64,000 nt of DNA from Dehalococcoidia bacterium. Its GTDB lineage: Bacteria; Chloroflexota; Dehalococcoidia; Lucifugimonadales; JAGWBF01. The translations under genes were made by a program, and so were the position numbers. Within the stretch, counting starts at the first letter, position 1, and the number at the start of each line of letters is the position of its first letter. Location: the NCBI GenBank assembly GCA_965116325.1, contig OZ220675.1:449138-513137 (forward strand), read 5' to 3'. Below, piece after piece: positions 7,615 to 61,000 of the stretch. The notes beneath the pieces are model-generated. The model was given only the letters and a program-made list of their open reading frames with translations, was not told the DNA's origin and made no database searches.

Positions 7615-7655
7615 GCTAACAACTCAGGGGGAGAATTCAGCCCCGGCATGTTCCG

Positions 7656-8722: not shown

Positions 8723-8756
8723 CCACAGGGGCAGGGTATTCACCCTGCCCCTGTGG
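8723..8756 (-). terminator. perfect 15-bp-stem palindrome downstream of the 8777..10651 gene
   Basis: ccacaggggcagggt-attc-accctgcccctgtgg. There is no strong U-tract. The same 26-nt core recurs at 15442. Confidence 0.45.
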
Positions 8757-8776
8757 TTGAGAGACTCGCCAGGTTC

Positions 8777-10651: not shown

Positions 10652-10660
10652 ATCCTCCTA

Positions 10661-12376: not shown

Positions 12377-12434
12377 AATTCCCTCCCGTCTAGGCCCCGG
12401 AGAGGCCTTGAGTAGCTAGGCGACGGGAGATTAT

Positions 12435-12472
12435 CACAGAAAACTTTCGGGAACTATATACTTGACGATCCT
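12435..12472. repeat. left terminal inverted repeat of the IS1595-like element
   Basis: CACAGAAAACTTTCGGGAACTATATACTTGACGATCCT. The outer 8 nt and inner 24 nt are identical to the reverse complement of 14725-14760. Confidence 0.8.
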
Positions 12473-14716: not shown

Positions 14717-14724
14717 ACATTTTA

Positions 14725-14760
14725 AGGATCGTCAAGTATATAGTTCCCAAACTTTCTGTG
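14725..14760. repeat. right terminal inverted repeat of the IS1595-like element
   Basis: The reverse complement reads CACAGAAAGTTTGGGAACTATATACTTGACGATCCT. It lies 9 nt upstream of the transposase start. Confidence 0.8.
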
Positions 14761-14872
14761 GCCAGAGCTTGCCCAAAATCCACCGCCCGGATGCCGGCGC
14801 AGGCAATTGGGCGCTGGAGGATGGGTGTGCTATAGTCGGTGAGCACCGTCCACCCTACCAAGGAGGCCCCCT

Positions 14873-15412
14873 ATGCGCATACTGCTGGCGGTCCTGTTGC
14901 TGACCACCCTGGCCCTCACAGCCTGCGGAGGAGAACCGGAACACCCCGAACTCAAGGAGTCCAGACAGATAGCAGAGAAGTGGCTCAAGGACTTTCCAGA
15001 CCTGAACCTGCACACCGGCGTCTACAGCAACCCCTTAAACCGGCTTGAATACGATGAGCACCCAGCCCTTCCCGATGTGATCTACGAGTCCGCCGCTGTG
15101 CGGGAGTTCCGAAGCCAACTCCCTGCCGAGCGCAGGACTGCCCTTGAGGAGCAGATCTATACGTTCCTGTGGAAAGAGCTGTTCCGCCATGTGTCCATCA
15201 AGATCACCAATGTGGAGCTCAGCTATGGCGGAGGCGACGGTCTGGTCACCGCCACGGTCGCCGGCGACATGACCATTGACCTGGAAGAGCACCCGCCCCT
15301 CCGGCTGGATGTATCCGTACCTGTCATGATGCTTGTGAGCACGTTCATTGATCTGGTCCTGAACTGGGCCTACGACGACGACAATATCGTGGTGGCCATC
15401 AACGACCAGTAG
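14873..15412 (+). CDS. lipoprotein, unknown function
   Basis: Signal peptide with lipobox LTAC-GG. A GGAGG lies 7 nt upstream of the ATG, and a hairpin terminator follows the gene. Confidence 0.6.
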   Translation: MRILLAVLLLTTLALTACGGEPEHPELKESRQIAEKWLKDFPDLNLHTGVYSNPLNRLEYDEHPALPDVIYESAAVREFRSQLPAERRTALEEQIYTFLWKELFRHVSIKITNVELSYGGGDGLVTATVAGDMTIDLEEHPPLRLDVSVPVMMLVSTFIDLVLNWAYDDDNIVVAINDQ

Positions 15413-15441
15413 CTTCTAAGCTGTCCACTGAGCAAAAGAGA

Positions 15442-15471
15442 AGGGGCAGGGTTTTCACCCTGCCCCTCTTT
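15442..15471 (+). terminator. intrinsic terminator-like hairpin
   Basis: aggggcagggt-tttc-accctgcccct followed by cttt. It sits 30 nt after the stop codon. Confidence 0.6.
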
Positions 15472-15516
15472 GACGGCCCTTCCCTTTCGGGAGCGTCGTA
15501 TCCTTTGTCGGGCTCA

Positions 15517-15559
15517 CGAGGCCGCAACTCTTTACGTAGCCGAGGCCGCAACTCTTTAC
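15517..15559. repeat. two tandem copies of a 19-bp motif upstream of the transposase gene
   Basis: cgaggccgcaactctttac appears twice with a 24-bp period. A 10-bp-stem hairpin (aacatggaac...gttccatgtt) follows at 15599-15625. Confidence 0.7.
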
Positions 15560-15655
15560 ATAACCCGCCCGACCTTTTAGACTGGGGCCGACGGCGAAAA
15601 CATGGAACGTGTCAGGTTCCATGTTCTCTAGCCACCAAGGAGATAGACCCTCCCG

Positions 15656-16876
15656 ATGGCTTGGTACAAATCTACCACAGGTCTGCTACCCCTTCAATCC
15701 GACAGGGTCAACACCCTCCGCGCGATCTTCGCGTCCCTCGATGATGAAGCTCTTGTCACCCACCTGAAGCAGCATCGCCACATGGGACGGCACGGCTACC
15801 CGGTACGGGCGATGTTCCGGGCATACCTCGCCAGCTTCGTTCTCAACCTCCGTCACACCAACGACCTGATTCGAAGGCTTCAGGACGACAGAAACCTGCG
15901 CCGGATCTGCGGGCTGGGGAATACCCTTCCCCACCGCACCACCTTCAACCGGTTCATCCGCACCTTGGGCCGTCACGCCGACTTGGTGGAAGAGGTCCTG
16001 AACAGCATCACCGGCGAGCTCCGCGAACTCATCCCCGACCTGGGGGCTGAGGTGGCGGTGGATTCGACCGCAGTGCGCACCCATGCCAACCCACATCCAC
16101 GAAGGCGCGGGCTTTTCGACCCGGAAGCATCCTGGACAGCCAAGAACAGCGCCCACGCCCCCGAAGGAAAGGAATGGCACTACGGCTACAAACTGCACCT
16201 GCTGGCGGACACCGTGCACGGGATTCCCCTGGCACAGATCGTGACCACCGCCAAGCGAAACGACTCTCCCTACCTGCCCAGGCTTGCCGACAAAGCCCGG
16301 GCACAGCTCCCATGGCTGGACATGAAGGCGCTCATGGCCGACAGAGGCTACGATGCTTTCTCGAACCATCAGTACCTTGTGGACAAAGCCATCTTGCCGG
16401 TGATCCTGATGAAGAGAGCCCCAAACACAAAGAACGGCCTTATAGGGGGCATCTACACCGCCGAGGGTGTCCCAACGTGCGTGGGACAGGTTCCGATGCA
16501 GTTCATACGCACAGACCCGGAGAAGGGCCACCTCTACCGGTGCCGGGGTTGCCATCTGGCGGACTCCACCAAGGGCATGACAACCCACTGCCAGGACGAG
16601 GTGTGGGAGGAGCCCTCGACGAACATCAAGGTTGTGGGTGTTCTCAGCAGGGCAAGCCCGGAATGGAAGGCCCTGTACGCCAAGCGCTGGTGTATCGAGA
16701 GGGTGTTCAAGAGCATGAAACAGGGTCGAAGGCTGGAGGCCCACTGCGTGAAGGGGCTAGCCCACATCACCCTGCACTCCCTGATGTCCACCCTGGCCTA
16801 CTCAGCAACAGCTCTGGTGAAGGCCCGGGCCGGGTCCCGCAGGACTATGCGCTGGATGGTGGAGAAGGTGGCTTAG
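15656..16876 (+). CDS. DDE transposase, IS4/IS5/IS1182-type (DUF772-like N-terminus plus DDE_Tnp_1)
   Basis: Candidate DDE residues lie in VAVDSTAV, LMADRGYD and YAKRWCIERVFKSMK (a Y-x2-R-x3-E-x6-K signature). Element ends were not identified. Confidence 0.8.
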   Translation: MAWYKSTTGLLPLQSDRVNTLRAIFASLDDEALVTHLKQHRHMGRHGYPVRAMFRAYLASFVLNLRHTNDLIRRLQDDRNLRRICGLGNTLPHRTTFNRFIRTLGRHADLVEEVLNSITGELRELIPDLGAEVAVDSTAVRTHANPHPRRRGLFDPEASWTAKNSAHAPEGKEWHYGYKLHLLADTVHGIPLAQIVTTAKRNDSPYLPRLADKARAQLPWLDMKALMADRGYDAFSNHQYLVDKAILPVILMKRAPNTKNGLIGGIYTAEGVPTCVGQVPMQFIRTDPEKGHLYRCRGCHLADSTKGMTTHCQDEVWEEPSTNIKVVGVLSRASPEWKALYAKRWCIERVFKSMKQGRRLEAHCVKGLAHITLHSLMSTLAYSATALVKARAGSRRTMRWMVEKVA

Positions 16877-17056
16877 TCCGTCGATATGGTGGCTATGGAG
16901 TGTGGTCATCCATGGGCTTGGGGGCTTGTGGTACCGCTGGCACCTTGCGATTCAGATATTTCTTGGGTATGCGCTTACACGGCCCAAGGGTCGGTCCGTT
17001 TTTCTTGTTCTTTTGCCTGATCTTCCAAACCATAAGGCCCTCCTGTTGCATCGGTG

Positions 17057-17458
17057 TTAACTACCCCTAGAAACAACGATCGGCACGCTGTATTTCTCGT
17101 CGCCGTTTATAAGGATCGCTAGGGCGTAATCACCGGGGGTGGGAAACCACAACTCCTCTAGCGGTATGGCGAAGGTCTCTGTCCACCGCAGCCGACCTCG
17201 CATATCGGCCGGCACCTCGATTTCATATTCGGCTGAGTGTATTCTTTGCCCGTCGGGACTTATCAGAACGATAGACATATCTTTGGTGGCCCCGAACTCG
17301 GCAGGGCCACAAGACAGACCGAAAACCATTGAGCTAGGCTCCATTGCCGACGGAAATGTCTCGAAAGTGATGCTCTGAAACACTCCAGCAATAGTCAAAC
17401 GTCCTGTCGTTGCGGGGTAATAGGACTTCTCTGCTATCAGCGCAAAGCGTATTTCCAT
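17057..17458 (-). CDS. hypothetical protein
   Basis: The start is moved to MEIRF (ATG 17458), which has GGAGG 7 nt upstream. I recognise no motif. Confidence 0.5.
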   Translation of the reverse strand: MEIRFALIAEKSYYPATTGRLTIAGVFQSITFETFPSAMEPSSMVFGLSCGPAEFGATKDMSIVLISPDGQRIHSAEYEIEVPADMRGRLRWTETFAIPLEELWFPTPGDYALAILINGDEKYSVPIVVSRGS

Positions 17459-17707
17459 CCATGCACCTCCCAATTGTACACCCTAGCACAGCGTCAAGGC
17501 AGTCGCCAGAGCTTTCACGCCCTGTTTATAGCTACCTTTTCGGCAGCAATTCCACTGAGAAGCCGTCCACGCTGAATAGCGTGACCTTGCGTCCTTTGCG
17601 CTTCGGCCCATGGAGCCTGGGCCGTCGTACCAGCACCAAAGGACGCTTGGGATGTTTGTTCGCCATCCCTTTCCCCTTTCCCCAGGGGAACCCGCCGACC
17701 CGATCTG

Positions 17708-17737
17708 TTGACAGAGCTTCTCTAGGGTCGGTATAAT
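17708..17737 (+). promoter_or_regulatory. near-consensus sigma70-type promoter
   Basis: TTGACA (17708-17713), an 18-nt spacer, then TATAAT (17732-17737). Confidence 0.6.
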
Positions 17738-17743
17738 AGCGTC

Positions 17744-17823
17744 ACTTTCAGGGTGAGCCATCTGGAGGTTTCCTCTGGATTGTTTAGAGGCCGGTGCAAC
17801 ACACACCGGTCTCTTTTCATTTT
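17744..17823 (+). ncRNA. candidate small RNA of about 80 nt (orphan promoter-to-terminator unit)
   Basis: The promoter above is followed by a 9-bp hairpin (atctggagg/cctctggat). A terminator follows: an 11-bp stem (agaggccggtg-caacaca-caccggtctct) plus tttcatttt. No credible ORF lies between them. Confidence 0.4.
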
Positions 17824-17879
17824 ACCCGAAAGTTAGAACGGTCGCCATAGGGAACTCTTGTTCGTAGCTCTGAACATCA

Positions 17880-18119
17880 TCAGCCTGTCGGGTCCCTGCC
17901 CTGCTCTATCTGAGCTCGGCGCAGCGCGATAGCATCGTTCAGAAGGTCGGAGTCGGTCTTTTCCAGGATTTCAATGTCTCCCCTGAGAATCGGGTCTGAC
18001 ATCTTGACCTTGTTCTCGGCACGGCGCTTGGCGGTCTGCTTGGGAGCCTGAATCCCGAACACGTAGTACCCAGCTCCCGCGATAGCTGCCACTACAACCA
18101 CGATCAGCAACACTTCCAT
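17880..18119 (-). CDS. small single-pass membrane protein
   Basis: The start is moved to MEVLLIVVVVAAIAGAGYYVF (ATG 18119), with AAGGAGG 7 nt upstream. Confidence 0.5.
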   Translation of the reverse strand: MEVLLIVVVVAAIAGAGYYVFGIQAPKQTAKRRAENKVKMSDPILRGDIEILEKTDSDLLNDAIALRRAQIEQGRDPTG

Positions 18120-18171
18120 CTTCGAACCTCCTTTTTCGGTAGACGGCACGCTTGTTCGTAGCGTCGGCTGG

Positions 18172-19029
18172 TTATTCCCTCTCGGCACAATAGGCTTCGA
18201 CAGGCTGGTACGCTTCGGTGAAGCCGGTCACATCGAACTTGGCCCGGTACCATCCGGCGTCCCCATCGACAGCAACCTCCAGGTGGTCGTGCTGGCCCAA
18301 TGTCTCGATGAACTGACGCTCGGCCGCACGGTTGGCGCTGTACGGAGGGGACAGAAGGTAGCCTATAGCCTCGTGCGTCCTCCAGGTAGAAACGACTGCG
18401 GGGCCCTCGTCCCAAGTGAACTGCACAGATTGATCGCCCTCCAGGGTCACATATGGGGGCAAGTCCAAGGTGACCGATATGTAACGGCTCCGGGGAGGCG
18501 TTGGGGCGAAGCAGGTGACGCCCAATTCCACATCGCCGACCAGATCTGGTGTTTCATAGGCGTCAAGGTTGACCGACATCCACGCGAGGGAGCCAAGGTC
18601 CGCATCGTTTGCGTACCAGTCACCGGTGCCGACTTCTGACGGTTCTGTGACTATACGGGTGACTTCGACTTCACGAGTGACTTCTACCTCGCGAGTGACT
18701 TCTACCTCGCGGGTGACTTCGACCTCACGGGTAGCTTCGACTACACGGGTGATTTCTACGGACACTCCCTGGGGGCCTGCGGGTCCTTGCTCCCCTTGAG
18801 GCCCCTGTGAGCCGGTGTCCCCTTGCGGTCCTTGCCCCCCTGGCAGCCCTGTGGCACCCGGTACACCTTGTTCCCCTGGCTCACCCTGTGGACCTTGTAT
18901 TCCAGGTTCCCCTCGTGCGCCCTGCGGTCCCGCAGGTCCGGGAGGACCTTCGATACATCCCGCTATTGTCACCATCAAAAGTGACATTAGAATGGTTCCT
19001 GTTCCGAGAAACCTCGGTACAATGTACAT
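18172..19029 (-). CDS. collagen-like triple-helix-repeat lipoprotein
   Basis: Lipobox IAGC, then about 20 consecutive G-X-Y triplets ([16 protein letters not shown]...), then a tandem hexapeptide (EVTREV, about 5 copies) and a globular domain of about 150 aa. Confidence 0.75.
18659..18760. repeat. 18-bp tandem repeat, about 5.5 copies
   Basis: Units of gtgacttc(g/t)acc(t)c(a/g)cg(a/g)g encode the EVTREV repeats of the collagen-like gene. Confidence 0.8.
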
Positions 19030-19191
19030 GGTGCCCCCTTGTAAGCGTGCTGGGTCTCACTTGCGACAGCTTCACCCATGATGCTCCAAGGGGGCGCGGG
19101 GGATTCCCAGCACAACCTATAAACATCATAGGGAAACTGTCGCATAGGGAGACTACCACAAGACCGAGGGGATATCCACTAGGAACCGCGC

Positions 19192-19821
19192 ATGTTAGAG
19201 AGCATCATCGGAGCTGTGGTCGGGGGCACCTGCGTGCTGTGCATTGCCAAGCTGCGAAACGTGCCAGCAATCTACCGGTGGCTTAAGGGTGCCGTGTGTG
19301 CCCTATATTGCAGATGCAGGGTGAGGTTTTGGACATGGCGAACAACACCTGTGGTGCGACGCCTGCTTGATGAACGCCGAGGTCTGAGTTTCCTAGCGGA
19401 CTACTACGACGACTTACTCAAGACTCGTGGCAAAGCCATCAATCGGGATTGGGTAGACGCGATGGCTCCCGATGAACCGGCAAGAGTCCGTGATGTCTTT
19501 GTTGCTCAGGCCTTGCATGATCTATGCCAGCGCGGTCAGGTTGTGAAAGCCCGAATGTTTGTCGACTACGTCGTAAGCCCACAGCCCTGGGGCTATAGCT
19601 TCCAACAGCGATGGGCTGGCATAGAGGTCGCTGACCAAGCGCAGGCCATGGAGAATGACAGCGTATGCTATCTCTCGCAGGCCGTATACGGATACTGCCC
19701 AGCAGAGGAACGCTTCAATGGGCCTTATAGTTGGGACCAAAAGCGCGATGCCCTGCCGTGCTCTACCTGTTGGCAAAAAGATGTCCCTGGGGCACAATGG
19801 TGGAGCCCCAGATGGTATTAA
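19192..19821 (+). CDS. hypothetical Cys/Trp-rich protein
   Basis: ORF with an N-terminal hydrophobic helix. I recognise no motif. Confidence 0.4.
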   Translation: MLESIIGAVVGGTCVLCIAKLRNVPAIYRWLKGAVCALYCRCRVRFWTWRTTPVVRRLLDERRGLSFLADYYDDLLKTRGKAINRDWVDAMAPDEPARVRDVFVAQALHDLCQRGQVVKARMFVDYVVSPQPWGYSFQQRWAGIEVADQAQAMENDSVCYLSQAVYGYCPAEERFNGPYSWDQKRDALPCSTCWQKDVPGAQWWSPRWY

Positions 19822-28138: not shown

Positions 28139-29779
28139 TTACTCAATGGTCACGACCTTCGTGAACGGGGAGCAGCCAGCTTTGTTGCATGCCCTGACCT
28201 TCCAACTGGTCAGGTCGTACCCCCCGAAGAACCTGTTGGGGGCAACCTCGAATGACTGGGCATCAAGCGGGGCGTTTACCTGTAAGTCGAGCTCAAACGG
28301 GAGGTCGGGTTCGGAGCCTTTCCACAGCTCATAGTAGGTCGCACCCGCCACCGGTTCCCAGTTGAGCTTCGCATCGTCGACGGCAAAGGTCCCACGATTT
28401 ACGATCTTCTCTCCCCGGAACCCCGGGGGAGTGGATGGGACGCTCACAGGACCGTCGGATTCGGTGGTGGCAACCGCAATCGCCTGGGAGCACTCGAATT
28501 CGTCACAAGTCAGCAACGCAAGATAGTGGACCGCACTTGGCTGCAGGCCGTCGGCGACATGGGTCCCCGCGTCTACCTCCGACAGCACAAGGTTGTACGG
28601 CCCGTCCGGGGACTGGCTGGCGTGCAACTGATAGTAAAAGTATCGCGGGGGTTCCCTGACATACTCCTCCCACTCGGGGTCCGACCACTCGACGGTTAGG
28701 GAATCGGAGGTCCTGCTTGTGATGGATAAGGTCGCAGTGGGCAGCCGACCGCGGACATCGCTCCAGCAGGTGGCGGAACCGTCTTCTCGTACTGCACAGA
28801 CCATCGCGGGCGGGTAGTCCACGACAGGCCCGTCATCACCGTAATAAGGCTCAACCGAGCCAACACTCCCCGATATGAACGTGCCCTGCGTGAACGTGTC
28901 CGGGGGCAGGTCGACGGGAGAGGGATCGTCCGCCACAAGGCTCCAGCAGGCAAGGGTCTTGTTCTCCCGCAACCCGCAAGCGATGTCTCTGCCAACGCTG
29001 ACCGACGTGAAGGAACCCTCAGGCTGCGTAACTTGCAAATCATCGAGACCGCCGTCGCAGCTGAACGATTTCGCCCCGAACACCGTACAGCCCCCGCAGG
29101 TGATAGTCCCGTCCTCGCGCACCCCGCAGATATGGCCAAAGTCGCCAACGCTCACCGAGGTGAAGGAACCCCCAGGGGGCGTGGCCTGCCCGATTTCATC
29201 TGAGCCCCTGCAGGCGATAGTCCCGTCCTCGCGCACCCCGCAGATATGGCCAAAGTCGCCGACGCTCACCGAGGTGAAGGAACCCTCAGGCGGCGTGGGC
29301 TGACTGAACTCATCGTGTCCCCAGCAGGCGATAGGCCCATCGTCGCGGACACCGCAGGACAGGCTGCCGCCAACGCTCACCGAGGTGAAGGAACCCTTAG
29401 GCGGCGTGGCCTGCCTGAACTCATCGTGTCCCCAGCAGGCGATAGACCCATCGTCGCGGAGGCCGCAGGACTGGCTGTCTCCAATGCTCACCGAGGTGAA
29501 GGAACCTTCTGGCGGCGGCGCTGGGGGTAGGTAGCCCAGGGCCCGGCAGTAGAGGGAACCATCCGCCCGCACTCCGCATATATGCAGAAACCCGACATCT
29601 ACCGATGTGAAGGCGCTGCCCGGAGACGGGGGCGTGGCCGGCGGCGCAGGCAAGACGGTGAAGTCTGATCGATACGGGGGCTGTTCTGAGAGCCACTCTC
29701 CGCCGCATCCCATGAGAGCTGCGGAAAGGACCAACGGGAGGGTCAGGAAGATGAAATTTCTTAAAACGTTAGGGAGCAT
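28139..29779 (-). CDS. lipoprotein with RCC1-like beta-propeller repeats and two FN3-like domains
   Basis: Lipobox LMGC. Six or more repeats of 38-39 aa (GSFTSVSVG..CGVR.DG.IACWG). C-terminal FN3-like modules are present (LTVEWSDPEW; LNWEPVAGATYYELW). The start shares one base with the stop of the upstream LRR gene. Confidence 0.7.
   Translation of the reverse strand: MLPNVLRNFIFLTLPLVLSAALMGCGGEWLSEQPPYRSDFTVLPAPPATPPSPGSAFTSVDVGFLHICGVRADGSLYCRALGYLPPAPPPEGSFTSVSIGDSQSCGLRDDGSIACWGHDEFRQATPPKGSFTSVSVGGSLSCGVRDDGPIACWGHDEFSQPTPPEGSFTSVSVGDFGHICGVREDGTIACRGSDEIGQATPPGGSFTSVSVGDFGHICGVREDGTITCGGCTVFGAKSFSCDGGLDDLQVTQPEGSFTSVSVGRDIACGLRENKTLACWSLVADDPSPVDLPPDTFTQGTFISGSVGSVEPYYGDDGPVVDYPPAMVCAVREDGSATCWSDVRGRLPTATLSITSRTSDSLTVEWSDPEWEEYVREPPRYFYYQLHASQSPDGPYNLVLSEVDAGTHVADGLQPSAVHYLALLTCDEFECSQAIAVATTESDGPVSVPSTPPGFRGEKIVNRGTFAVDDAKLNWEPVAGATYYELWKGSEPDLPFELDLQVNAPLDAQSFEVAPNRFFGGYDLTSWKVRACNKAGCSPFTKVVTIE
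29040..29560. repeat. 114-117-bp tandem repeats inside the RCC1-like gene
   Basis: For example, 29102-29170 versus 29216-29284 differ at 1 of 69 bases. Confidence 0.75.
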
Positions 29780-31074
29780 CAGCAGAACGGCAGGCCCAAG
29801 AATTCCAGGTCGTTGCTATAGTCCAGATCGCTCAACTCGCCCGGTATGCAGCCGCTCAGGTCGTTGCCCGCAAGTCTCAGCAACTCCAGGTCTTGGAGCT
29901 GGGCCAGTGTGTAAGGGACTTCTCCGGTCAGTTCGTTGTCATCGAGAATCAGCCATGTCAGGTTGGAGAGCAGGCCAAGGTCAACCGGAATTGCCCCACT
30001 CAGGTCGTTGCCGGAGAGGACAAGGTTCACCAAGCTGTAGAGTTGGCCCAGTGTGTCCGGTATCTCCCCGCTCAACCGGTTGTTGGAGAGCCTCAGGGCG
30101 CTCAGGTTGGAGAGCAGGCCCAGGTCAGGCGGTATCTCTCCCATCAAGTCGTTGGAGCTGAGGTCCAGGTACTCCAGGTTGGAGAGTTGGCCCAGCCAGG
30201 CCGGGACCTCCCCGGTCAGCGCGTTGTCATCCAGGACCAGTCCTCTCAGGAGAGAGAGTTGGCCTAGCTCCGCCGGTATCACACCGATCAAGTCGTTGCC
30301 GGCTAGGTCCAGGTACTCCAGGTTGGAAAGCTGGCCCAGCTCGGCCGGGATTGCTCCGCTCAAGTTGTTGTCGTCCAGGCGAAGGTGGTCCAGGTAGGAG
30401 AGTTGACTCAGTTCCAGCGGTATCCCTTCGCTCAATTGGTTCTCATTGACTGCCAGGCTCTCCAAGTAGGAGAGTCGACCAAGTTCAGGCGGGATCGGTC
30501 CGCTCAGCTGGTTTGTGTAGAGGGTCAGAACGACCAAGTCTGAAAGCTGCCCCAGCTCGGCCGGGATCTCGCCTCTCAACTGGTTGGTGTGGAGGATCAG
30601 AGCAAACAGGTAGGAGATCTGGCCCAGTTCGGCCGGGATCTCCCCGCTCAAGCCGTTCTCCGGAAGGTCAAGCTCGTATACGCGGCCGACCAGGTCCGCC
30701 GGCGCGTTGTCCGCCGTGTATGTGGCCACGCCGTACCACTCGCCAAGGGGCTTGTCGCTCAGCCAGTTGTCGTTGTTCGTCCAGTTGGGGCCGTCCGTGG
30801 CGTTGTAGAGGGCAACCAGCGCTTCCCGGTCCGTTTCGACGGAGGTCCCCTCCGGCGTGGGCATGGCTTCCGGGGTCTCCATGTCAGCGGTCGCAGCAGA
30901 GGTCCCCTCCGGCGTGGACATGGCTTCCGGGGTCTCCGCAGCTGTAGGCGTGGAAGAAGTGGCAGTCGCAGCTCGATCACCGTCGGGGGGCTCCAAAGGC
31001 TGATCCGCGCCGCATGCCAGGAGAGCCGCAGCAAGGACCAGGGAGAGGCTTACGGCAATCAGCCTTCTTGTCAT
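29779..31074 (-). CDS. plant-type leucine-rich-repeat lipoprotein
   Basis: Lipobox-like ALLAC. N-cap DREALVALYNATDGPNWTNNDNWLSDKPLGEWYGV. About 12 repeats of 24 aa (LxxLxxLxLxxNxLSGxIPxxLGx). C-cap GCIPGEL...NDLEFLGLPFC-stop. Confidence 0.8.
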   Translation of the reverse strand: MTRRLIAVSLSLVLAAALLACGADQPLEPPDGDRAATATSSTPTAAETPEAMSTPEGTSAATADMETPEAMPTPEGTSVETDREALVALYNATDGPNWTNNDNWLSDKPLGEWYGVATYTADNAPADLVGRVYELDLPENGLSGEIPAELGQISYLFALILHTNQLRGEIPAELGQLSDLVVLTLYTNQLSGPIPPELGRLSYLESLAVNENQLSEGIPLELSQLSYLDHLRLDDNNLSGAIPAELGQLSNLEYLDLAGNDLIGVIPAELGQLSLLRGLVLDDNALTGEVPAWLGQLSNLEYLDLSSNDLMGEIPPDLGLLSNLSALRLSNNRLSGEIPDTLGQLYSLVNLVLSGNDLSGAIPVDLGLLSNLTWLILDDNELTGEVPYTLAQLQDLELLRLAGNDLSGCIPGELSDLDYSNDLEFLGLPFC

Positions 31075-31158
31075 TTCAGCTTTCCCAACCTCCGCATGCA
31101 GGATGCCCCATCGCGATAATGCTGCTTCCCGCTGGATTCCACGAAAACCCCACGCGCA

Positions 31159-32508
31159 TCAGCAGAAGGGCAGGCCCAACTCCTCAAAGTCGTTCTCCTC
31201 TATAGCCCCTAGCGCGGCAGGCACGCAGCCGCTGAGGCCGTTGCCGGCGAGTTTCAGCTCCTCCAAATCGAACAATCTCCATAGCTCAGGCGGTATCTCC
31301 CCCCTCAACTGGTTCTCCTCAAGGTACAGCCAATTCAGGCTGGCGAGTTTGCCCAGCTCTGGCGGTATCTCCCCGCTCAACCGGTTCTCGTGGAGGTCCA
31401 GCCTTATACGGCTGGCGAGGTTACCCAGCTCCGCGGGTATCTCGCCGCTCAACCGGTTCTCGAAGAGTTCCAGCCGTTGAAGGTTCGAGAGGCTGCCCAA
31501 CTCCGGCGGTATCTCCCCGCTCAGCTGGTTCTTGTGGAGGCTCAGCGTCTCCAGGTTGGCGAGGTTGCCCAGCCCCGGCGGTATCTCTCCGCTCAACCGG
31601 TTGCCGCCGAGAAATAGGGATCGGAGGTTTGAGAGTCTTGCCAACTCCCTGGGTATCTCCCCGCTCAGCTGACTGCGGCCGAGACTCAGCATTTCCAGGC
31701 TGGCGAGATTGCCCAGCTCAGCGGGTATCTCGCCGCTCAACCGGTTGCCGCTGAGAATAAGCCACTCCAGGCTGGTGAGGTCAGCCAGCTCCGGCGGTAT
31801 CTCCCCGCTCAACTGGTTTTCGGAGAGGTTCAGCGACTTCAGGCCGGCGAGGTCGGCCAGGTCCGGCGGTATCTCCCCGCTCAACTGGTTGCCATTGAAG
31901 TTCAGCCACTCCAGGCTGGCGAGATTGCCCAGCTCCCGCGGTATCTCTCCGTCCAGATCGTTGCCGCCCAAGTCCAGCCACTCCAGGTTGGCAAGCGCGC
32001 TCAGCTCCCGCGGTATCTCGCCGGTCAGTTTGTCGGAGTTGAAGTTCAGCAGTTCCAGTTGGGACAGGTTGCCCAGTCCGGGCGGTATCTCTCCGGTCAG
32101 GTTGTTGTCGTAGAGGCGCAGCTTTATGACCCGCCCATTGTCGTCGGTGTCGACACCGTACCACTCTTCCAGCGGCTCGTCGCTCAGCCAATTGTCGCTC
32201 TTCGACCAGCTTGGCCCGTCCGTGGCGTTGTATAGGACAACCAGGGCTTCCCTGTCGGTTTCGACGGAGGTCTGGTCGGGCGTGGGCATGGCTTCCGGCG
32301 TCTCCGCAGTTGTAGACTGGGGTGCGTCGGTGGATTGGGGCGTGGCAGCAGGTTCCCCGGCCGCCGCGCCGCTTTCCGTTGCGGATGTGGACACGGCTTG
32401 ACCAGCGGGGGGCAATTCCTGCGGCTCATCCGCGCCGCACGCCAGGAGAGCCGCGGAAAGGACAAGGGAGAGGATTATGGCAATCAGTCTTCTTGTCATT
32501 TCAGCCAC
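31159..32508 (-). CDS. plant-type leucine-rich-repeat lipoprotein (paralog)
   Basis: Same architecture as the previous LRR gene. It ends ...NDFEELGLPFC-stop. Confidence 0.8.
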   Translation of the reverse strand: MAEMTRRLIAIILSLVLSAALLACGADEPQELPPAGQAVSTSATESGAAAGEPAATPQSTDAPQSTTAETPEAMPTPDQTSVETDREALVVLYNATDGPSWSKSDNWLSDEPLEEWYGVDTDDNGRVIKLRLYDNNLTGEIPPGLGNLSQLELLNFNSDKLTGEIPRELSALANLEWLDLGGNDLDGEIPRELGNLASLEWLNFNGNQLSGEIPPDLADLAGLKSLNLSENQLSGEIPPELADLTSLEWLILSGNRLSGEIPAELGNLASLEMLSLGRSQLSGEIPRELARLSNLRSLFLGGNRLSGEIPPGLGNLANLETLSLHKNQLSGEIPPELGSLSNLQRLELFENRLSGEIPAELGNLASRIRLDLHENRLSGEIPPELGKLASLNWLYLEENQLRGEIPPELWRLFDLEELKLAGNGLSGCVPAALGAIEENDFEELGLPFC

Positions 32509-32537
32509 TCATATCCAGCGCTTTACTCCACGGAAAT

Positions 32538-33569
32538 CTAGTTCGCATCGCAGAACGGCAGGCCCAAGAGATCGATGTCGTTGAACCTCACGTTCCTCAA
32601 TATGCCTGGTACGCAACCGCTGAGGTCGTTGTCCGATAATCTCAGCGTTCTCAGCTTGGAGAGTTGGCCCAATTCAGCCGGTATCTCGCCCGTTAACTCG
32701 TTGCCGCTGAGGTTCAGCCATTCCAGGTAGGGGAGTTGACCCAGTTCAGCCGGTATCTCTCCGCTCAAGTCGTTGTCGCTGAATTCCAGCTGGTCCAGGT
32801 TGACAAGGCTACCCAACCACATCGGTATCTCTCCACCCAACTGGTTGCCACTGAGATCAACGGTTGCCAACTTGGAGAGTTGGCCCAGTTCTGCCGGTAT
32901 CTCTCCGCTCAACCGGTTGTCCTTGAGGAGCAGCCCTCTCAGTGTCTCAGAGAGTTGGCCCAGTTCCGCCGGTATCTCGCCCGTTAACTCGTTGCCGCTG
33001 AGGTTCAGCCATTCCAGCCAGGGGAGTTGACCCAGTTTCGCCGGTATCTCTCCGCTCAGTTGGTTGTCCATGAGATACAGGCTTCCCAACTCGGAGAGTT
33101 GGCTCAACTCCGGGGGTATTTGCCCTCTCAACTCATTGTCACTGAGATCCAACTCTCCCAGACTGAGCCCCAGCTCTTTGAAGAGTTGGCCCAGTTCAGC
33201 CGGTATCTCTCCGCTCAGTTGGTTACTATCGAGGCGCACATTGGTTACTCGCCCACTGTAATTGGTTGAGACCCCATACCACTCGTCCAGCGGCTTGTCG
33301 CTCAGCCAATTGTCGCTGTTCGTCCAATTGGGTCCGTCCGTGGCGTTGTAGAGGGCAACCAGTGCTTCCCGATCCGTTTCAACGGAGGTCTGGTCGGGCG
33401 TAGTAACGGATTCAGTTGCCACCGCAGTTGTAGGCGTGGGAGAAGTGGCAGTCGCAGCGCGATCAGTGTCGGGGGGCTCCAAAGGATCATCCGCGCCGCA
33501 GGCCAGGACAGCCGCGGCAAGTACCACCGCAAGGACGAGTATAGGTATCCGCTTGGCAACTTGTCCCAT
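32538..33569 (-). CDS. plant-type leucine-rich-repeat lipoprotein (paralog)
   Basis: Same N-cap and 24-aa repeats. It ends ...NDIDLLGLPFCDAN. Confidence 0.8.
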   Translation of the reverse strand: MGQVAKRIPILVLAVVLAAAVLACGADDPLEPPDTDRAATATSPTPTTAVATESVTTPDQTSVETDREALVALYNATDGPNWTNSDNWLSDKPLDEWYGVSTNYSGRVTNVRLDSNQLSGEIPAELGQLFKELGLSLGELDLSDNELRGQIPPELSQLSELGSLYLMDNQLSGEIPAKLGQLPWLEWLNLSGNELTGEIPAELGQLSETLRGLLLKDNRLSGEIPAELGQLSKLATVDLSGNQLGGEIPMWLGSLVNLDQLEFSDNDLSGEIPAELGQLPYLEWLNLSGNELTGEIPAELGQLSKLRTLRLSDNDLSGCVPGILRNVRFNDIDLLGLPFCDAN

Positions 33570-55068: not shown

Positions 55069-55650
55069 TCATCCGAATGGCACCTGGCTCTGCTCATGTT
55101 CGGCGCCGTTTCTCATTGGTGTGGGCGTTTCGCCCCTGGGCCGTTCGGCCCTGGCTTCCCCAGCGCTGCGGGCCATGGCAATGCGCCCGGTGCGCATCAC
55201 TTCTCGAATTCCAAAGGGACGCAGCAGATTGTACATTGCATCGATCTTGTCTTCCCCGCTGGTAATCTCAATGATGAGAGATTGGGGGCTGACATCGACG
55301 ATGTTGGCTCGGAAGATGTTCACGAGCTGGATGATCTCGCTGCGATTTGCGGGAGTGGCCCGGACCTTGATCAACGCCACTTCCCGGGCGACGATCTCAT
55401 CCTCCACCAGCTCCGACACCTTTACGACCTCGATGAGCTTGTTAAGCTGCTTGGTGACCTGTTCCATGGTGGCAATGTCGCCTTCGACCACAAAGGTCAT
55501 GCGGGACAGGTTAGGCTGCTCGCTCCGTCCAACGGCCAAGCTGGCGATGTTGAAGCCCCGGCGCCGGAATAGGCTGGACACTCGGTTCAGGACGCCGGGC
55601 TGGTCCTGCACCAGCGCAACTATGGTGTGGCGTTCGGTTGCATCGCTCAT
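55069..55650 (-). CDS. ilvN: acetolactate synthase small (regulatory) subunit
   Basis: ACT domain HTIVALVQDQPGVLNRVSSLFRRRGFNIASLAVG. It overlaps the ilvB stop by 4 nt. Confidence 0.88.
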   Translation of the reverse strand: MSDATERHTIVALVQDQPGVLNRVSSLFRRRGFNIASLAVGRSEQPNLSRMTFVVEGDIATMEQVTKQLNKLIEVVKVSELVEDEIVAREVALIKVRATPANRSEIIQLVNIFRANIVDVSPQSLIIEITSGEDKIDAMYNLLRPFGIREVMRTGRIAMARSAGEARAERPRGETPTPMRNGAEHEQSQVPFG

Positions 55651-57368
55651 GTGGCGGTCCCTTCGTTGCTGGCTTGGAAGGCGGGCTGCTGGTCCGGCTC
55701 TTCCAGCATCTCGGCCAAGCTCTCCCCCGCCGGTATCATGGGGAACACGTTCTCTTCAGGCTCCACGAGGAAGTCCACCACGACCGGCCCCGGCTCCATC
55801 ATCGCCTGCCGTATCGACGACTCCACCTGGGACTTGTCGGTGACCCGGATTCCGGGGATGCCGTAGGCCTCGGCCAGCTTCACAAAGTCCGGGTTGGCGG
55901 AGTAGCTGGTTGCTGTATATACCTTGTCGTAGAAAAAGTCCTGCCACTGGCGCACCATGCCCAGGTAGCCGTTGTTCATGATGGCGAATTTGACGGCGAT
56001 GTTGTTCTCGACGCAGGTTGCCAGGTCGCACAGGGTCATCTGGAACCCGCCGTCCCCGGCGATGGACCAGACCACCTTGTCCGGCGCGCCCACCTTTGCG
56101 CCCATGGCCGCCGGCACCTCGAACCCCATGGCGCCCAAGCCTCCCGAGGTGATCAGGCTGTTGGGGTTCTTGAACCTGCAGTGCTGGGCCGCCCACATCT
56201 GGTGCTGGCCCACACCCGTGACAACCAGCGCGTTTCCGTCGGTAACGTCGGACAGGGTGCGCAAGATGTACTGGGGGAGCAGGTGGTCCGTCTCCCGTAT
56301 CCGGTGGGAGGGATGCTCCGCTCGCATATCTTCGACCTGCTGGACCCACTCGGGGTGCACCGTGGCTTGAACATGGGGAAGCAGCGCCTGCAGGACACGC
56401 TTAAGGTCGCCGACGATGGGCACCGTCGCCTTGACGTTCTTGCTGATCTCCGACGGATCGACGTCGATATGGACAACCTTGGCGTTGGGGGCGAAGTCGG
56501 ACAACCGGCCGGTCACCCTGTCGTCGAAGCGCATGCCAAGGGAGATGAGCAGGTCAGCCTCGTTAATGGCCATGCTGGCGTAGGCCATCCCGTGCATCCC
56601 GGGCATTCCGACGTTCAGGAAGTGCTCCGACGGGAAGGAACTTATGCCCAGAAGGGTCGTGACCACCGGTATCTGGGCCCTCTCCGCCAGCTCAAGCACC
56701 TCCTCGTAGGCCCGGGAGATGATGATGCCGTGCCCCGCCAGGATCAGCGGACGTTGGGCCTCGGCGATGAGTTGGGCAGCCTTCTGTATCTGGGAAGGAT
56801 GCCCGTCCATGGTCGGCTTGTACCCCGGCAGGTCCACATCGTCGGGGTAAGAGAATTCGGCCTGCTCGTTGAGCAGGACATCCTTGGGGATGTCGATAAG
56901 CACGGGGCCGGGCCGGCCTGTGCTGGCGATGTAGAATGCATTCTTGATTGCCTGGGGTATCTCCGCAGCCGACATGACCAGGTAGTTGTGCTTGGTGACC
57001 GGCAGGGTGATGCCCGTCATGTCCGTTTCCTGGAAGGCATCCTTGCCGATGGCTGCCCTTGGGACCTGGCCCGTAATGGCCACGATTGGGATGGAGTCCA
57101 TCTGTGCGGACGCGATGCCCGTAACCAGGTTGGTTGCCCCGGGACCCGATGTGGCCATGCACACGCCCACCTTGCCCGTCACCCTGGCATAGCCGTCGGC
57201 TGCCATGGCAGCCGCCTGTTCATGGCGTACCAGTATGTGGCGCAACTGGGGGTATTCGGGCATCGCCCCGTACAAAGGCAGGATCGCCCCGCCGGGTATG
57301 CCGAAAGCTACGTCTACGTTCTCCCGGAGAAGACTCTCGCAGACTATCTGGGCACCTGTCAGCTTCAT
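55647..57368 (-). CDS. ilvB: acetolactate synthase large subunit
   Basis: MKLTGAQIVCESLLRENVDVAFGIPGGAILPLY and the GDGGFQM TPP motif. Confidence 0.9.
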   Translation of the reverse strand: MKLTGAQIVCESLLRENVDVAFGIPGGAILPLYGAMPEYPQLRHILVRHEQAAAMAADGYARVTGKVGVCMATSGPGATNLVTGIASAQMDSIPIVAITGQVPRAAIGKDAFQETDMTGITLPVTKHNYLVMSAAEIPQAIKNAFYIASTGRPGPVLIDIPKDVLLNEQAEFSYPDDVDLPGYKPTMDGHPSQIQKAAQLIAEAQRPLILAGHGIIISRAYEEVLELAERAQIPVVTTLLGISSFPSEHFLNVGMPGMHGMAYASMAINEADLLISLGMRFDDRVTGRLSDFAPNAKVVHIDVDPSEISKNVKATVPIVGDLKRVLQALLPHVQATVHPEWVQQVEDMRAEHPSHRIRETDHLLPQYILRTLSDVTDGNALVVTGVGQHQMWAAQHCRFKNPNSLITSGGLGAMGFEVPAAMGAKVGAPDKVVWSIAGDGGFQMTLCDLATCVENNIAVKFAIMNNGYLGMVRQWQDFFYDKVYTATSYSANPDFVKLAEAYGIPGIRVTDKSQVESSIRQAMMEPGPVVVDFLVEPEENVFPMIPAGESLAEMLEEPDQQPAFQASNEGTAT

Positions 57369-57384
57369 TATGTAACCTCGCTGC

Positions 57385-57654
57385 GCCTTATAAAAAACGA
57401 CCCGTCCTGAAGGGACGGGTCGTTTCCCGCGGTACCACCCTTATTCTCGGTGATCATGATCACCAGAGCACCTCTGCGACATTAACGGCGTCGACCGCCC
57501 TTCCCTACTTTGAAACCGGAAAGCCGGTGTGTTCAGGAGGGCCGCTCGGGGGCGAGTTGAGGATTTCGCAGTCACCGGCCTTCCACCTGTGGCCGGCTCT
57601 CTGGGGGCGCTCTATCCCTACTACTCCCCTTCAGGCGCGGAACTATTGACTTGC
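57385..57654 (-). promoter_or_regulatory. T-box riboswitch leader of the ilv-leu operon
   Basis: The minus strand reads ...AGAGAGCCGGCCACAGGTGGAAGGCCGG (stem I distal region)...GAAATCCTCAA (specifier region)...AATAAGGGTGGTACCGCGGGAAACGACCCGTCCCTTCAGGACGGGTCGTTTTTTAT. That is the conserved T-box sequence followed by the terminator. Confidence 0.8.
57392..57424 (-). terminator. T-box leader terminator
   Basis: AACGACCCGTCCC-TTCA-GGACGGGTCGTT followed by TTTTAT. It lies about 25 nt upstream of the ilvB ATG. Confidence 0.8.
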
Positions 57655-57759: not shown

Positions 57760-58656
57760 ATGTACTGGATTTCGGCAGCCCTGGGCAGCTCCGTGATTTT
57801 CGGGGCCATGAACATTGCGGACCGGATTCTGCTCAGCCGACACTTTCCCATAGTATCCGTCTTCTTCATCTGGGAAGGCATTTTCCTCGCCACCTCGGGG
57901 ACGACTGTGCTGCTCATCGCCGGCATCCCCGACTCGGGCGAGGGCATCCTGCTGGCCTACTCGTCGGGCCTCATCTGGGGAATGGGCCTGATGTGCGTGT
58001 TCCTGGGGTTCCGCATGGAGGAGGCCTCCCGGGTCGTAGCCATCTACCAGACCTTCCCTGTGTTCGTGGCCATCCTGGCCCTCATATTCCTGGACGAGGT
58101 GCTGAACGCCGGACAGTGGGTTGGCATCCTGGCCGTGGTGGTGGGAGCCGTCGCCATCTCCTTCCGGGGTTCTCTGAAGTCGGGCTTGATAAGGTTCAAT
58201 CGCTCCCTGCCCGTGCTGATCGCCTCCAGCCTTCTAATAGCGGTGGGGTTGCTGATCAGCAAGCCTGCCCTGGACCTGATGCCCGTTTATGACGTCTTCA
58301 TGTTCCGCGCTTTGGGAATGGCATCCATCTTCCTGCTGTTCTTCCGCCCCAGGCACCTGTCAGGCCTCCGCGACTCTCTCAGAAAGAAGAGGGTCATGGG
58401 AATGTTCGTGATGGCTGAGTTGGTGGGCAGCAACCTGGCCCTATCCATGGTGCTGATAGCCACCGACCTGGGCCCCGTGTCCCTGGTGTCATCCCTGCTG
58501 GCCACCAGGCCCCTGTTCGTGTTCGCCTACAGCACCATCCTGAGCACACCCCAGCTCCATGTGCTGGACGAACCGATCAGGAAAGAGGTGCTCCTGCAGA
58601 AGTCCATCTCCGTGGCCGTCATCATCGCCGGCGTCTGCATGGTCAGCCTGTGGTAG
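57760..58656 (+). CDS. DMT-superfamily (EamA-like) transporter
   Basis: 10 predicted TM helices arranged as two EamA-like halves. Confidence 0.8.
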   Translation: MYWISAALGSSVIFGAMNIADRILLSRHFPIVSVFFIWEGIFLATSGTTVLLIAGIPDSGEGILLAYSSGLIWGMGLMCVFLGFRMEEASRVVAIYQTFPVFVAILALIFLDEVLNAGQWVGILAVVVGAVAISFRGSLKSGLIRFNRSLPVLIASSLLIAVGLLISKPALDLMPVYDVFMFRALGMASIFLLFFRPRHLSGLRDSLRKKRVMGMFVMAELVGSNLALSMVLIATDLGPVSLVSSLLATRPLFVFAYSTILSTPQLHVLDEPIRKEVLLQKSISVAVIIAGVCMVSLW

Positions 58657-58730: not shown

Positions 58731-59072
58731 CGTCATTGCGGCGGAGGCCGCAATCCAGGAAAGTCCAATATATGGACTAGGCTCCCCAATGCATTACCCA
58801 CTGCAACAATAGAGCCACTCTGAAAACCGCAGAGTTCCGCCTTGGATTGCGGCCTTCGCCGCAATGACGGAGGGCCCTTCGTCACACCCTACCATCCGTT
58901 CGCCCTTCGATTTCCCCCTTCGAGAGCCTCAGGACAGGCTCAGGGCGAACCGACAGCCCGGACGGGACACGTAGACTCCCGCTTTCGCGGGAGTGACGGG
59001 AATGGGAGTCGGGATTTGGCGCGCTGGTCCCGGCCTGGATTTTCTGGATTGCGGCCTTCGCCGCAATGACGG
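58731..59072. repeat. mosaic of short palindromic REP/MITE-like modules
   Basis: Module A is cgtcattgcggcggaggccgcaatcc at 58731, inverted at 58844 and 59046. Module B is gtagactcccgctttcgcgggagtgacgg at 58971. Module C lies at 58896-58954. Confidence 0.65.
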
Positions 59073-59190: not shown

Positions 59191-60267
59191 ATGGTCTCGA
59201 AAGCAGGTGCAATCATGACCTATGAGACGGGGGCGCTGATGTCCGGGCGGGTGGATGCCGACGGCATCGAAGATGCCATGGAGATGTGCTACAGCAGGGG
59301 CTGGACCGACGGCCTACCCGTGGTGCCTCCCACCGAAGAGAAGGTCATGCGCTTCCTGGAAATGGCTGACCGGCGCGCCTCGGACGTCATCGGCGTCGAG
59401 CCCGTGCGCGGGCGGGTCATCACCGCCGAGAAGGTGGCCATCAACGCCGTCATGGCGGGCTGCCTGCCCGAGTACATGCCCGTGGTCATGGCTGCAGTGG
59501 AGTGCATGGTGCAGCCCCAGTACAACCTCCACGGCAGCTCGGCCAGCACCGGAGGCTCCGCGCCCCTGATCGTCGTCAACGGCCCGGTGCGCCACCGCCT
59601 TGGCTTCGCCAGCAGCCACAACATCTTCGGACCTGGCCCCGACCGCCGGGCCAACGCCACCGTGGGCCGGGCTGTCCGCCTCCTGCTCATCAACGTGCTG
59701 GAAAATCATCCAGGCGTGCTGGACCGCTCTACCCTGGGACACCCGGGCAAGTACACCTACTGCATCGCCGAGGATGAGGAGAACAGCCCCTGGGAGCCCC
59801 TGCATGTGGAGCGGGCGTTCTCCCCCGAGGCCAGCACCGTGACCCTGTTCACATCCCTGGGACCAACCCAGCTTGAGTCCCGGCCCGCCGGCACCGCCGA
59901 GGCGATGTTGACGGGGGCCATCGACAGCATGATGGGCTTCGGGCACGGGCATGGGGAGCTGCTGCTCATGGTGTCACAGGAGCACGGAGGCTTCTTCAGG
60001 GCGGCCGGCTGGGACAAGGCCCAGGTGCGGGAGTTCGTCCACCAGCGGGCACGGCGCACAGCCTCGGACTGGGCATCCGTCTATAAGGGGGAGGTACCCC
60101 CGGCAGGCTCGGAGAACGAGATGGTCCCCGTCCTGCTGCGCCCAGAGTCCCTGGTGCTCCTGGCAGGAGGTGAGCCCGGCGGGCCCTGGTCTTGCCTGGT
60201 GCCCCGGTGGTCCAAGGGGGTCGGCTCCCTTTCGGTGAGCCGCGAAATCGATATGCGGAACCTGTAG
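59191..60267 (+). CDS. conserved hypothetical protein (upstream partner of the UGSC-type gene)
   Basis: 358-aa ORF with ordinary composition. I recognise no motif. An alternative start is ATG 59215. Confidence 0.6.
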   Translation: MVSKAGAIMTYETGALMSGRVDADGIEDAMEMCYSRGWTDGLPVVPPTEEKVMRFLEMADRRASDVIGVEPVRGRVITAEKVAINAVMAGCLPEYMPVVMAAVECMVQPQYNLHGSSASTGGSAPLIVVNGPVRHRLGFASSHNIFGPGPDRRANATVGRAVRLLLINVLENHPGVLDRSTLGHPGKYTYCIAEDEENSPWEPLHVERAFSPEASTVTLFTSLGPTQLESRPAGTAEAMLTGAIDSMMGFGHGHGELLLMVSQEHGGFFRAAGWDKAQVREFVHQRARRTASDWASVYKGEVPPAGSENEMVPVLLRPESLVLLAGGEPGGPWSCLVPRWSKGVGSLSVSREIDMRNL

Positions 60268-60333
60268 AAGACGGCGCATTCCGAGAGTGCCCCCGGTGGT
60301 ATAATGACGCCAACCTGAAGGGAGAGTGGCAGC

Positions 60334-60876
60334 ATGGTCATCGAAGCGACGAAAGTAACGTTCCTGGACCCAACGGTGGAAGCCATGCCCGACCGCACCA
60401 ACATGGCGCCCCGGCCCGCCAACCTGGACGGGGCCATGGTCGGCTTACTCGCCAACGGCAAGCGCAACGCCGACAAGCTGCTGGAAGCGGTCTACACACT
60501 GCTGGATGAGCGCTACGAGCTGAAGGGCGCCGTCCGGGTGAACAAGGGAGATGCCTCGCGGCCCGCGCCTGATCCGGTGGTGGAGGAGCTACTGCGGAAG
60601 TGCGACCTGGTGATCACCGCGACAGGTGATTGAGGGTCCTGCAGCTCGTGCAGTGTGCACGATGCAATAAGCGTTGAGAAGGCAGGCAAGCCGGCAGCAG
60701 CCATATGCACCGAGCCCTTCGTACCCACGGGGCGGTCAATAGCCAAGATACGGGGCATCGACGGCTATCCCTTCGCCGTGGTGACCCATCCGGTGGGAAG
60801 CGTGGAGGATGCTGTTGTGATGGAGCGGGCGCATCAAGCCCTACCCAGGGTGCTGGAGATACTGCTGGCTAAGTAG
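60334..60876 (+). CDS. candidate UGSC-family selenoprotein (in-frame TGA 60631-60633 read as Sec)
   Basis: Two listed ORFs (60334-60633 and 60655-60876) share one frame and are separated only by the TGA. The joined reading is ...LVITATGD-U-GSCSSCSVHDAISVEKAGKPAAAICTEPF... A hairpin starts 7 nt after the TGA. Confidence 0.6.
60640..60666 (+). promoter_or_regulatory. candidate bacterial SECIS hairpin
   Basis: TGCA-gc-TCGTGCA-GTG-TGCACGA-TGCA: a 4-bp lower stem, a 2-nt bulge, a 7-bp upper stem and a GUG apical loop. The loop starts 19 nt after the UGA. Confidence 0.4.
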
Positions 60877-60909: not shown

Positions 60910-61000
60910 CCGTCACTCCCGCGAAAGCGGGAGTCTACGCCCCCACAGCACAATTGCGGTTGTCCGTTCCCCTTCGATTTCCCTCAGGACGAACGGACAA
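60910..61000. repeat. REP/MITE-like modules related to those at 58.9 kb
   Basis: ccgtcactcccgcgaaagcgggagtctac (60910-60938) is the reverse complement of module B at 58971-58999. Bases 60964-61000 resemble module C. Confidence 0.65.

Follow-up and report, generated by a model that had tools for sequence, protein, structure and literature searches.

A probable UGSC-family selenoprotein gene divided by an in-frame UGA in a Dehalococcoidia chromosome

Two adjacent open reading frames in a 64,000-nucleotide (64-kb) stretch of Dehalococcoidia DNA (the window) are very probably one gene for a 180-residue selenoprotein, in which a SECIS hairpin would direct selenocysteine to codon 100 (Sec100) and whose product would be a flavodoxin-like redox protein that is paired with a partner protein. 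The gene is the Dehalococcoidia orthologue of the known, curated UGSC family, and nothing essential sets it apart from that family. Novelty is low, since the family is known and the lineage has already been recognised as rich in selenoproteins. The added value is modest and consists of the documentation of the SECIS, a predicted fold that is not that of thioredoxin, a constant and uncharacterised partner, and the extent of the annotation error in public MAGs. For the window, the annotation is corrected from two hypothetical fragments to one 180-aa selenoprotein.

Gene structure and family assignment

The complete coding sequence lies at 60334-60876 on the plus strand and comprises 180 codons plus TAG. 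A single frame runs from ATG 60334 through GAT TGA (60631-60633) GGG TCC TGC to the TAG at 60874-60876. The ORFs 60334-60633 and 60655-60876 are therefore in frame and are parted only by the TGA, as a preliminary description of this DNA had proposed. The 180-residue read-through translation also agrees with that description, with ...ITATGD-U-GSCSSCSVHD... in its middle; in its longer form the segment reads ...CDLVITATGD-U-GSCSSCSVHDAISVEK... The U-G-S-C redox motif (U100 and C103, at 60631-60642) is the part of this segment that is picked out by conservation among 68 family members, and the codon comparison among homologues marks the UGA at 60631-60633 as the putative selenocysteine codon (U100). 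After the TGA the sequence is coding-like in this frame only, with GC1/GC2/GC3 of 0.65/0.50/0.70, in a window with a GC content of 60.6% where real genes have a GC3 of about 0.7-0.86.

The start of the gene has a conserved ribosome-binding motif, a Shine-Dalgarno-like GGAG at 60321-60324 (+), 9 nt 5' of the ATG. A GGAG, GAGG or AGGA lies 4-14 nt 5' of the UGSC start in 19 of 21 sequences. The 66-nt gap 5' of the gene also holds TGGTATAAT (60297-60305, +), a putative extended -10-like promoter element. TGnTATAAT is found 36-48 nt 5' of the UGSC start in the window and in six related loci (L001, L002, L003, L005, L006 and L007), and a plain TATAAT lies 5' of the start in five more (L008, L015, L016, L020 and L021). 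A consensus scanner found no full -35/-10 promoter near the UGSC gene. The conserved TGnTATAAT, as a match to a consensus, suggests that the UGSC gene may also have its own promoter between the partner gene and itself.

The family name given in the preliminary description, UGSC, proved to be the right one. With U written as C for family HMM scoring, the read-through product matches NCBIfam NF041046, 'UGSC family (seleno)protein', with 143.4 bits against a curated cutoff of 125 (profile positions 2-146 of 147), and Pfam PF24696, 'UGSC', with 186.8 bits against a cutoff of 25 (E=4.5e-55; residues 10-178, profile positions 2-171 of 172). The PF24696 match is one stretch across the TGA, so a single domain spans the TGA and the arrangement is not due to chance. 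A Pfam scan of the read-through at E<=1 gave only PF24696 and a weak EryCIII-like match. Members carry U/C-G-S-C at a conserved position, where the window reads D-U-G-S-C-S.

The family has been known for some time. A UGSC-containing protein was described in 2007 as 'a selenoprotein of unknown function', and the same paper reports the family in Hyphomonas neptunium (PMC1976440); the example is ABI76733.1, the 'UGSC-containing protein' of Zhang & Gladyshev. In the Global Ocean Sampling data, UGSC later ranked among the most abundant selenoprotein families; 255 of its sequences there were Sec forms and 21 were Cys forms, and the motif was UxxC (PMC2398784). A 2026 review lists the family with NF041046, the evidence for a selenoprotein being computational (PMC13188914).

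Codon 100 in homologues

One genome per species was scanned in a tblastn-type search, which gave 35 loci with matches that span residues 1-180. The codon aligned with the UGA is TGA in all 22 Chloroflexota/Dehalococcoidia/SAR202 loci that cover it, and it is TGC or TGT (Cys) in all 11 Actinomycetota loci (Streptomyces, Pseudonocardia, Amycolatopsis and others). The UGSC proteins of the TGA-bearing loci are 45-99% identical, and the nearest relative, L001 (the Dehalococcoidia MAG chromosome OY760073.1), is 98% identical. The full-length database proteins P0046 and P0060 also have a Cys at the U position. The Cys-containing homologues that the preliminary description had suggested looking for thus exist. 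On this comparative sequence evidence, the codon that looks like a stop is almost certainly one for selenocysteine. Three other readings (read-through without selenocysteine, a true stop or pseudogene, and two separate proteins) are unlikely even when taken together.

The UGA might instead be decoded as one of the standard amino acids (Trp, Cys or Gly) through reassignment or near-cognate suppression, with no selenocysteine, and one public pipeline did give Trp: the record P0002 (GCA_001179545.1) has a 'W' at the Sec codon. In the DNA, however, this W corresponds to an in-frame stop, which had been read with a different genetic code. Of the 54 ORFs called in the window, 14 terminate in TGA, and no other in-frame TGA with comparable coding support was found in the 64 kb, which together argue that UGA is not reassigned here. 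The codon also alternates only with Cys codons, relatives carry a tRNA-Sec, in some cases adjacent to the gene, and a SECIS-type hairpin under strong constraint at the nucleotide level lies at the canonical distance from the UGA (see below). Decoding as a standard amino acid is therefore very unlikely. A second selenoprotein candidate in the window, at TGA 18637 (+) ('F-U-RFC'), was rejected because a real gene for a collagen-like repeat protein runs antisense to it.

A genuine stop at the UGA would leave a 99-aa protein from a truncated gene or pseudogene, followed by a decaying remnant of the downstream frame. This is exactly what gene callers give: of 91 homologues in the database, 84 are entries of exactly 99 aa that end in ...GD and are either unnamed or called 'hypothetical protein'. 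Sec machinery, too, was not seen in the window. Against this, the TGA is kept throughout the 22 loci despite the divergence of their proteins, and the frame stays open for about 80 codons past it in 20 of 20 orthologue comparisons. In the same 20 comparisons the half after the TGA is at least as conserved as the half before it (0.82 versus 0.67 in L006, for example). The homologues thus do not end at the equivalent of 60630, an outcome that the preliminary description had named as fatal to selenocysteine; the DNA continues in frame into a conserved C-terminal half. The Cys homologues are continuous, and the predicted domain needs strands from both halves. That the UGA is a true stop is thus highly improbable.

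Two small proteins of 99 and 73 aa, the second made by reinitiation at GTG 60655, are scarcely credible: both ORFs formally exist and GTG is a permitted start codon, but the 21 nt before the GTG (60655-60657) contain no GGAG, GAGG or AGGA and encode the most conserved residues of the family, G-S-C-S, the GTG itself falls inside the conserved motif, codon 108 of L008 is CTG, which is not a start codon, and the Cys homologues are single chains. The preliminary description had already remarked on the missing ribosome-binding site and on the position of the GTG.

The appearance of two ORFs is an artefact of the UGA being read as a stop, which is a routine annotation error. The misannotation is systematic in public data, as seen in the 99-aa fragments that make up most of the close homologues and in the record with Trp at the Sec codon. 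The selenoproteomes of Dehalococcoidia/SAR202 MAGs are thus undercounted where annotation is not UGA-aware.

The downstream hairpin and selenocysteine machinery

Selenocysteine insertion at the UGA would depend on a hairpin directly downstream. With the U of the UGA numbered as base 1, the predicted SECIS core (60646-60662, +) spans bases 16-32 and starts 12 nt after the UGA. It consists of a 7-bp stem, UCGUGCA/UGCACGA, and the apical loop G23 U24 G25 (60653-60655), and both folding and covariation point to it. When the 45 nt that follow the UGA are folded, the MFE structure pairs bases 10-13 with 33-36 and bases 16-22 with 26-32; the distance from UGA to loop is 19 nt, and the MFE of the core is -8.2 kcal/mol. 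This is exactly the 60640-60666 (+) hairpin of the preliminary description, whose lower stem of 4 bp joins 60640-60643 to 60663-60666. Among homologues, conservation is confined to the 7-bp upper stem; the lower stem is lineage-specific, being paired in 60% of cells and lacking compensatory changes.

Four published criteria describe a bacterial SECIS (PMC13188914): the loop has 3-9 nt and the stem 4-16 bp, the UGA-to-loop distance is 16-37 nt, the MFE is at most -7.5 kcal/mol, and there is a G among the first two bases of the loop, usually with G or U after it. The hairpin of the window, with its loop GUG, its 7-bp stem, its 19-nt spacing and its core energy of -8.2 kcal/mol, lies within all four, and the bacterial SECIS geometry that had been proposed for it is thereby upheld. 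A search with Infernal, also proposed earlier, matched no SECIS family of Rfam. In permissive mode on 60560-60760, a match to 'Transposase-2 RNA' at chance level (E=0.47) was all that it gave.

The sequence of the hairpin is strongly constrained beyond the encoded protein. Codons 105-109 (UCG UGC AGU GUG CAC) are synonymously frozen, with AGU in 21 of 21 sequences although Ser is six-fold degenerate, GUG in 18 of 18 and UGC in 21 of 21. Among 85 sliding windows of codons they rank first for low normalised synonymous entropy, at 0.08, where the gene as a whole averages 0.75. The 7-bp stem is paired in 98.7% of cells (22 distinct sequences), and two of its pairs show compensatory double changes, a count that none of 500 shuffles reached. 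One of these changes, in L013, turns G18-C30 into C18-G30 at the cost of a His-to-Gln replacement, and the other, in a paralogue of L031, turns C21-G27 into G21-C27. L011 has a G.U wobble in the stem. In the loop of the orthologues, positions 23 and 24 are invariant and position 25 varies (G/A/C).

Fold energy was uninformative by itself, since the region 60625-60700 folds no better than shuffles (z=0.18) and the GC-rich Cys-type genes fold at least as stably as the Sec-type region. The support for a SECIS consists of the comparative data, and from these the hairpin is predicted to act as a bacterial SECIS.

The SECIS of E. coli fdhF offers a direct comparison, and its sequence was confirmed in 5,419 of 5,426 E. 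coli genomes. In both cases a hairpin within the coding sequence follows directly after the UGA and has a 17-nt core, G23 and U24 of the loop have identical positions, and the tops of the stems are similar (GCA-loop-UGC). In fdhF these two loop bases contact SelB. The hairpin of the window differs from that of fdhF in having a triloop, GUG, where fdhF has a tetraloop, GGUC, in lacking a bulged U, and in having the base of its stem 12 rather than 11 nt after the UGA.

A different hairpin, GGCGAC...GUCGCC with a loop of 8-10 nt, is present in the Cys-type actinomycete genes of the GSCSATT subgroup (L022, L024, L025, L026, L029 and L035). It lies in the 45 nt past the Cys codon, roughly where the Sec forms have their SECIS. 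It may represent the relic of a SECIS, or high GC content may be enough to explain it.

Neither a tRNA-Sec in the 64-kb window nor selA, selB or selD among its 30 largest ORFs was found. Four relatives (L011, L019, L020 and L021) have a tRNA-Sec with the anticodon UCA 0.1-2.3 kb downstream of the UGSC gene, as predicted by ARAGORN and confirmed by Rfam RF01852 (67-70 bits against a gathering score of 47). In L011 (10647-14163) and L019 (12772-16067), the order of genes past UGSC is tRNA-Sec, a short ORF with no family match, a desulfurase and an agmatinase. The desulfurase is a cysteine desulfurase of the NifS/IscS type, with weaker similarity to the selenocysteine lyase SclA. An NCBIfam scan beside the tRNA-Sec of these two loci found no selA, selB or selD. 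SAR202-type genomes may thus have a small selenium-related gene neighbourhood at UGSC and tRNA-Sec. Among the bacteria richest in selenoproteins that BSepDB lists are Dehalococcoidia MAGs that have 46-49 such genes (PMC13326102).

During translation, the UGA at 60631-60633 would then be decoded as selenocysteine. The hairpin at 60646-60662, with its loop G23-U24-G25, would recruit SelB.GTP.Sec-tRNA(Sec), and the ribosome would insert Sec100 instead of terminating, as we infer from the comparative evidence.

The protein, its partner and their surroundings

P13, K43, D91, G98, D99, S102, C103, S104, F129, H152 and P153 are invariant in the 68 members of the family, and U/C100 is nearly so. C106, the third Cys of the window protein, is not conserved among them: the majority consensus is GDCGSCSAS, and the residue is replaced in all 11 actinomycete loci. 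The UxxCxxC motif of the preliminary description is thus present in the read-through of the window, but it does not extend to the family, whose motif is UxxC. The lineage of the window adds a third Cys that most members lack.

The fold was modelled on P0046, a Cys-type homologue that is 39% identical to the window protein. Its AF2 model (pLDDT 90.6) has a three-layer beta-alpha-beta domain to which both halves of the gene contribute strands. The residue equivalent to U lies just after strand 86-90 and caps helix 95-110. The best PDB matches of the model are flavodoxin-like domains (TM 0.42-0.49), and the 50 Foldseek matches listed include flavodoxin-like and other alpha/beta domains and no thioredoxin. 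A PDB sequence search with the UGSC protein and its partner found nothing. As modelled from this homologue, the UGSC fold appears to be flavodoxin/Rossmann-like and not thioredoxin-like. The thioredoxin-like fold that had been suggested for UGSC in 2008 (PMC2398784) is thus not supported, given the flavodoxin-like best matches of the P0046 model.

The product of the gene would accordingly be drawn as one flavodoxin-like alpha/beta domain to whose sheet both 'ORFs' contribute strands. Sec100 and Cys103 would cap a helix at its N-terminus, in a typical redox-active UxxC arrangement, and would probably cycle via a selenenylsulfide. The thioredoxin-fold UxxC/CxxU selenoproteins (SelW-like, Prx-like and Trx-like) also have a redox UxxC motif at the N-terminus of a helix that follows a beta strand, but the UGSC model differs from them in its flavodoxin-like three-layer alpha/beta fold.

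The preliminary description had compared the Sec context to that of glycine reductase selenoprotein B (GrdB). UxxCxxC is indeed the GrdB motif according to a 2026 review (PMC13188914), and this part of the comparison holds; the similarity at the family level amounts to a sub-threshold hint. The window protein scores 17.4 bits against a cutoff of 602.2 and 13.6 against 65.45 with the GrdB/PrdB models (TIGR01917 and TIGR01918), which is outside membership. Four related NCBIfam models give weak matches, all on the Sec region, with residues 85-156 of the query aligned to positions 331-397 of the GrdB profile. The window protein is 180 aa long and GrdB about 430, and the third Cys of the motif is not conserved in the UGSC family. 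UGSC resembles GrdB in that a partner subunit, which in UGSC is a putative one, is encoded separately. Neither of the two adjacent ORFs (57760-58656 and 59191-60267) has a match in NCBIfam, so grdA, grdE or prdA is not evident beside UGSC, and no Grd or Prd model matches among the 30 largest ORFs of the window. The similarity to GrdB is a hint, to be taken as a lead rather than as membership.

The ORF at 59191-60267 (+), just upstream, encodes a 358-aa protein that is a near-constant neighbour of UGSC. It has no Pfam or NCBIfam match at E<=1. It adjoins the UGSC gene in 33 of the 35 related loci, in both Chloroflexota and Actinomycetota and in either gene order: most Chloroflexota loci have it upstream of UGSC, and actinomycetes have it on either side. 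The partner has at least 7976 homologues in the database, and the 120 matches listed carry no Pfam domain and no name other than 'hypothetical protein'. Its AF2 model (pLDDT 88.4) has no meaningful structural match in the PDB (best TM 0.26). C91 and C191 are invariant in the partner.

The conserved pairing of the two genes suggests that UGSC and the 358-aa protein together form a two-component redox enzyme, and this is the most likely way for the UGSC protein to work. The pair duplicates as a unit (in L031) and stays together in two phyla. Whether it amounts to a widespread two-subunit selenoenzyme, with a large subunit whose fold has no solved relative and a small subunit that carries the Sec/Cys centre, is a more tentative matter, and we regard this as a reasonable possibility rather than an expectation. 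The proposed roles would be loosely analogous to those of GrdB/PrdB, which serve a separate substrate-activating subunit. The unannotated 358-aa protein that constantly accompanies UGSC and the predicted non-thioredoxin fold may both serve as leads toward the function of UGSC.

L031, a groundwater Chloroflexi MAG, has five tandem pairs of UGSC-like and partner genes at 6245-18825, with UGSC first in each. TGA occupies the Sec position in four of the UGSC copies. In copy 2 (10001-10462) it is found at the positions of both U and the resolving Cys (GD-U-GT-U-TSW), and it is possible that this is a UxxU diselenide variant or, alternatively, a decaying copy.

P0082 was considered as a partner-UGSC fusion that might have served as a Rosetta-stone argument, and was rejected: its locus has same-frame stops, frameshifts and a diverged C-terminus of the partner. 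The apparent fusion is probably a frameshifted assembly artefact, on a contig that is named like one from a long-read assembly.

The context of the pair in the window is that of an ordinary chromosome, with leuA, leuC, ilvC, an ilvB-type ORF by a T-box leader, gyrB, moaA, a mutase and IS elements. The T-box leader (57408-57642, -; Rfam RF00230, 106.8 bits) lies directly 5' of the 573-aa ilvB-type ORF at 55647-57368. This ORF, named acetolactate synthase-like from its translation, heads a minus-strand run into ilvC, leuA and leuC.

REP-like palindromic units of about 27-30 nt are found at 58731-58757, 58843-58870, 58970-58999, 59045-59072 and 60910-60939. They follow the pattern CGTCAyT-stem-GNNG-stem-ArTCyA and have at least two stem variants with mutually compensating changes. 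Their occurrence in the 64 kb is limited to the two intergenic regions that flank the partner-UGSC pair. Two of them form a perfect 30-nt inverted repeat (58970-58999 and 60910-60939, 1,910 nt apart) around the partner and UGSC genes. This repeat was considered as the boundary of a mobile cassette and rejected as such, because it belongs to the REP-like family and the units vary in number and position among loci with 97-98% identical UGSC proteins. As the loci L001, L002, L015 and L016 differ in both respects, the units look like a mobile interspersed repeat.

A collagen-like protein with G-x-y repeats and VEVTRE repeats is encoded at 18172-19029 (-), within 17057-19821. GC3 in the stretch around this gene is unusually low, at 0.56-0.67 compared with 0.7-0.86 elsewhere. 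Transposases of the IS1595 and IS1182/IS5 types and a Dam-family methyltransferase (12925-16876) lie just upstream. The region is possibly an acquired island.

Three consecutive ORFs of 431, 449 and 343 aa at 29779-33569 (-) have sub-threshold matches to models of XopAC/XopAE-type effectors and of fibronectin binding. The matches cover stretches of about 115-165 residues, which are likely repeat regions.
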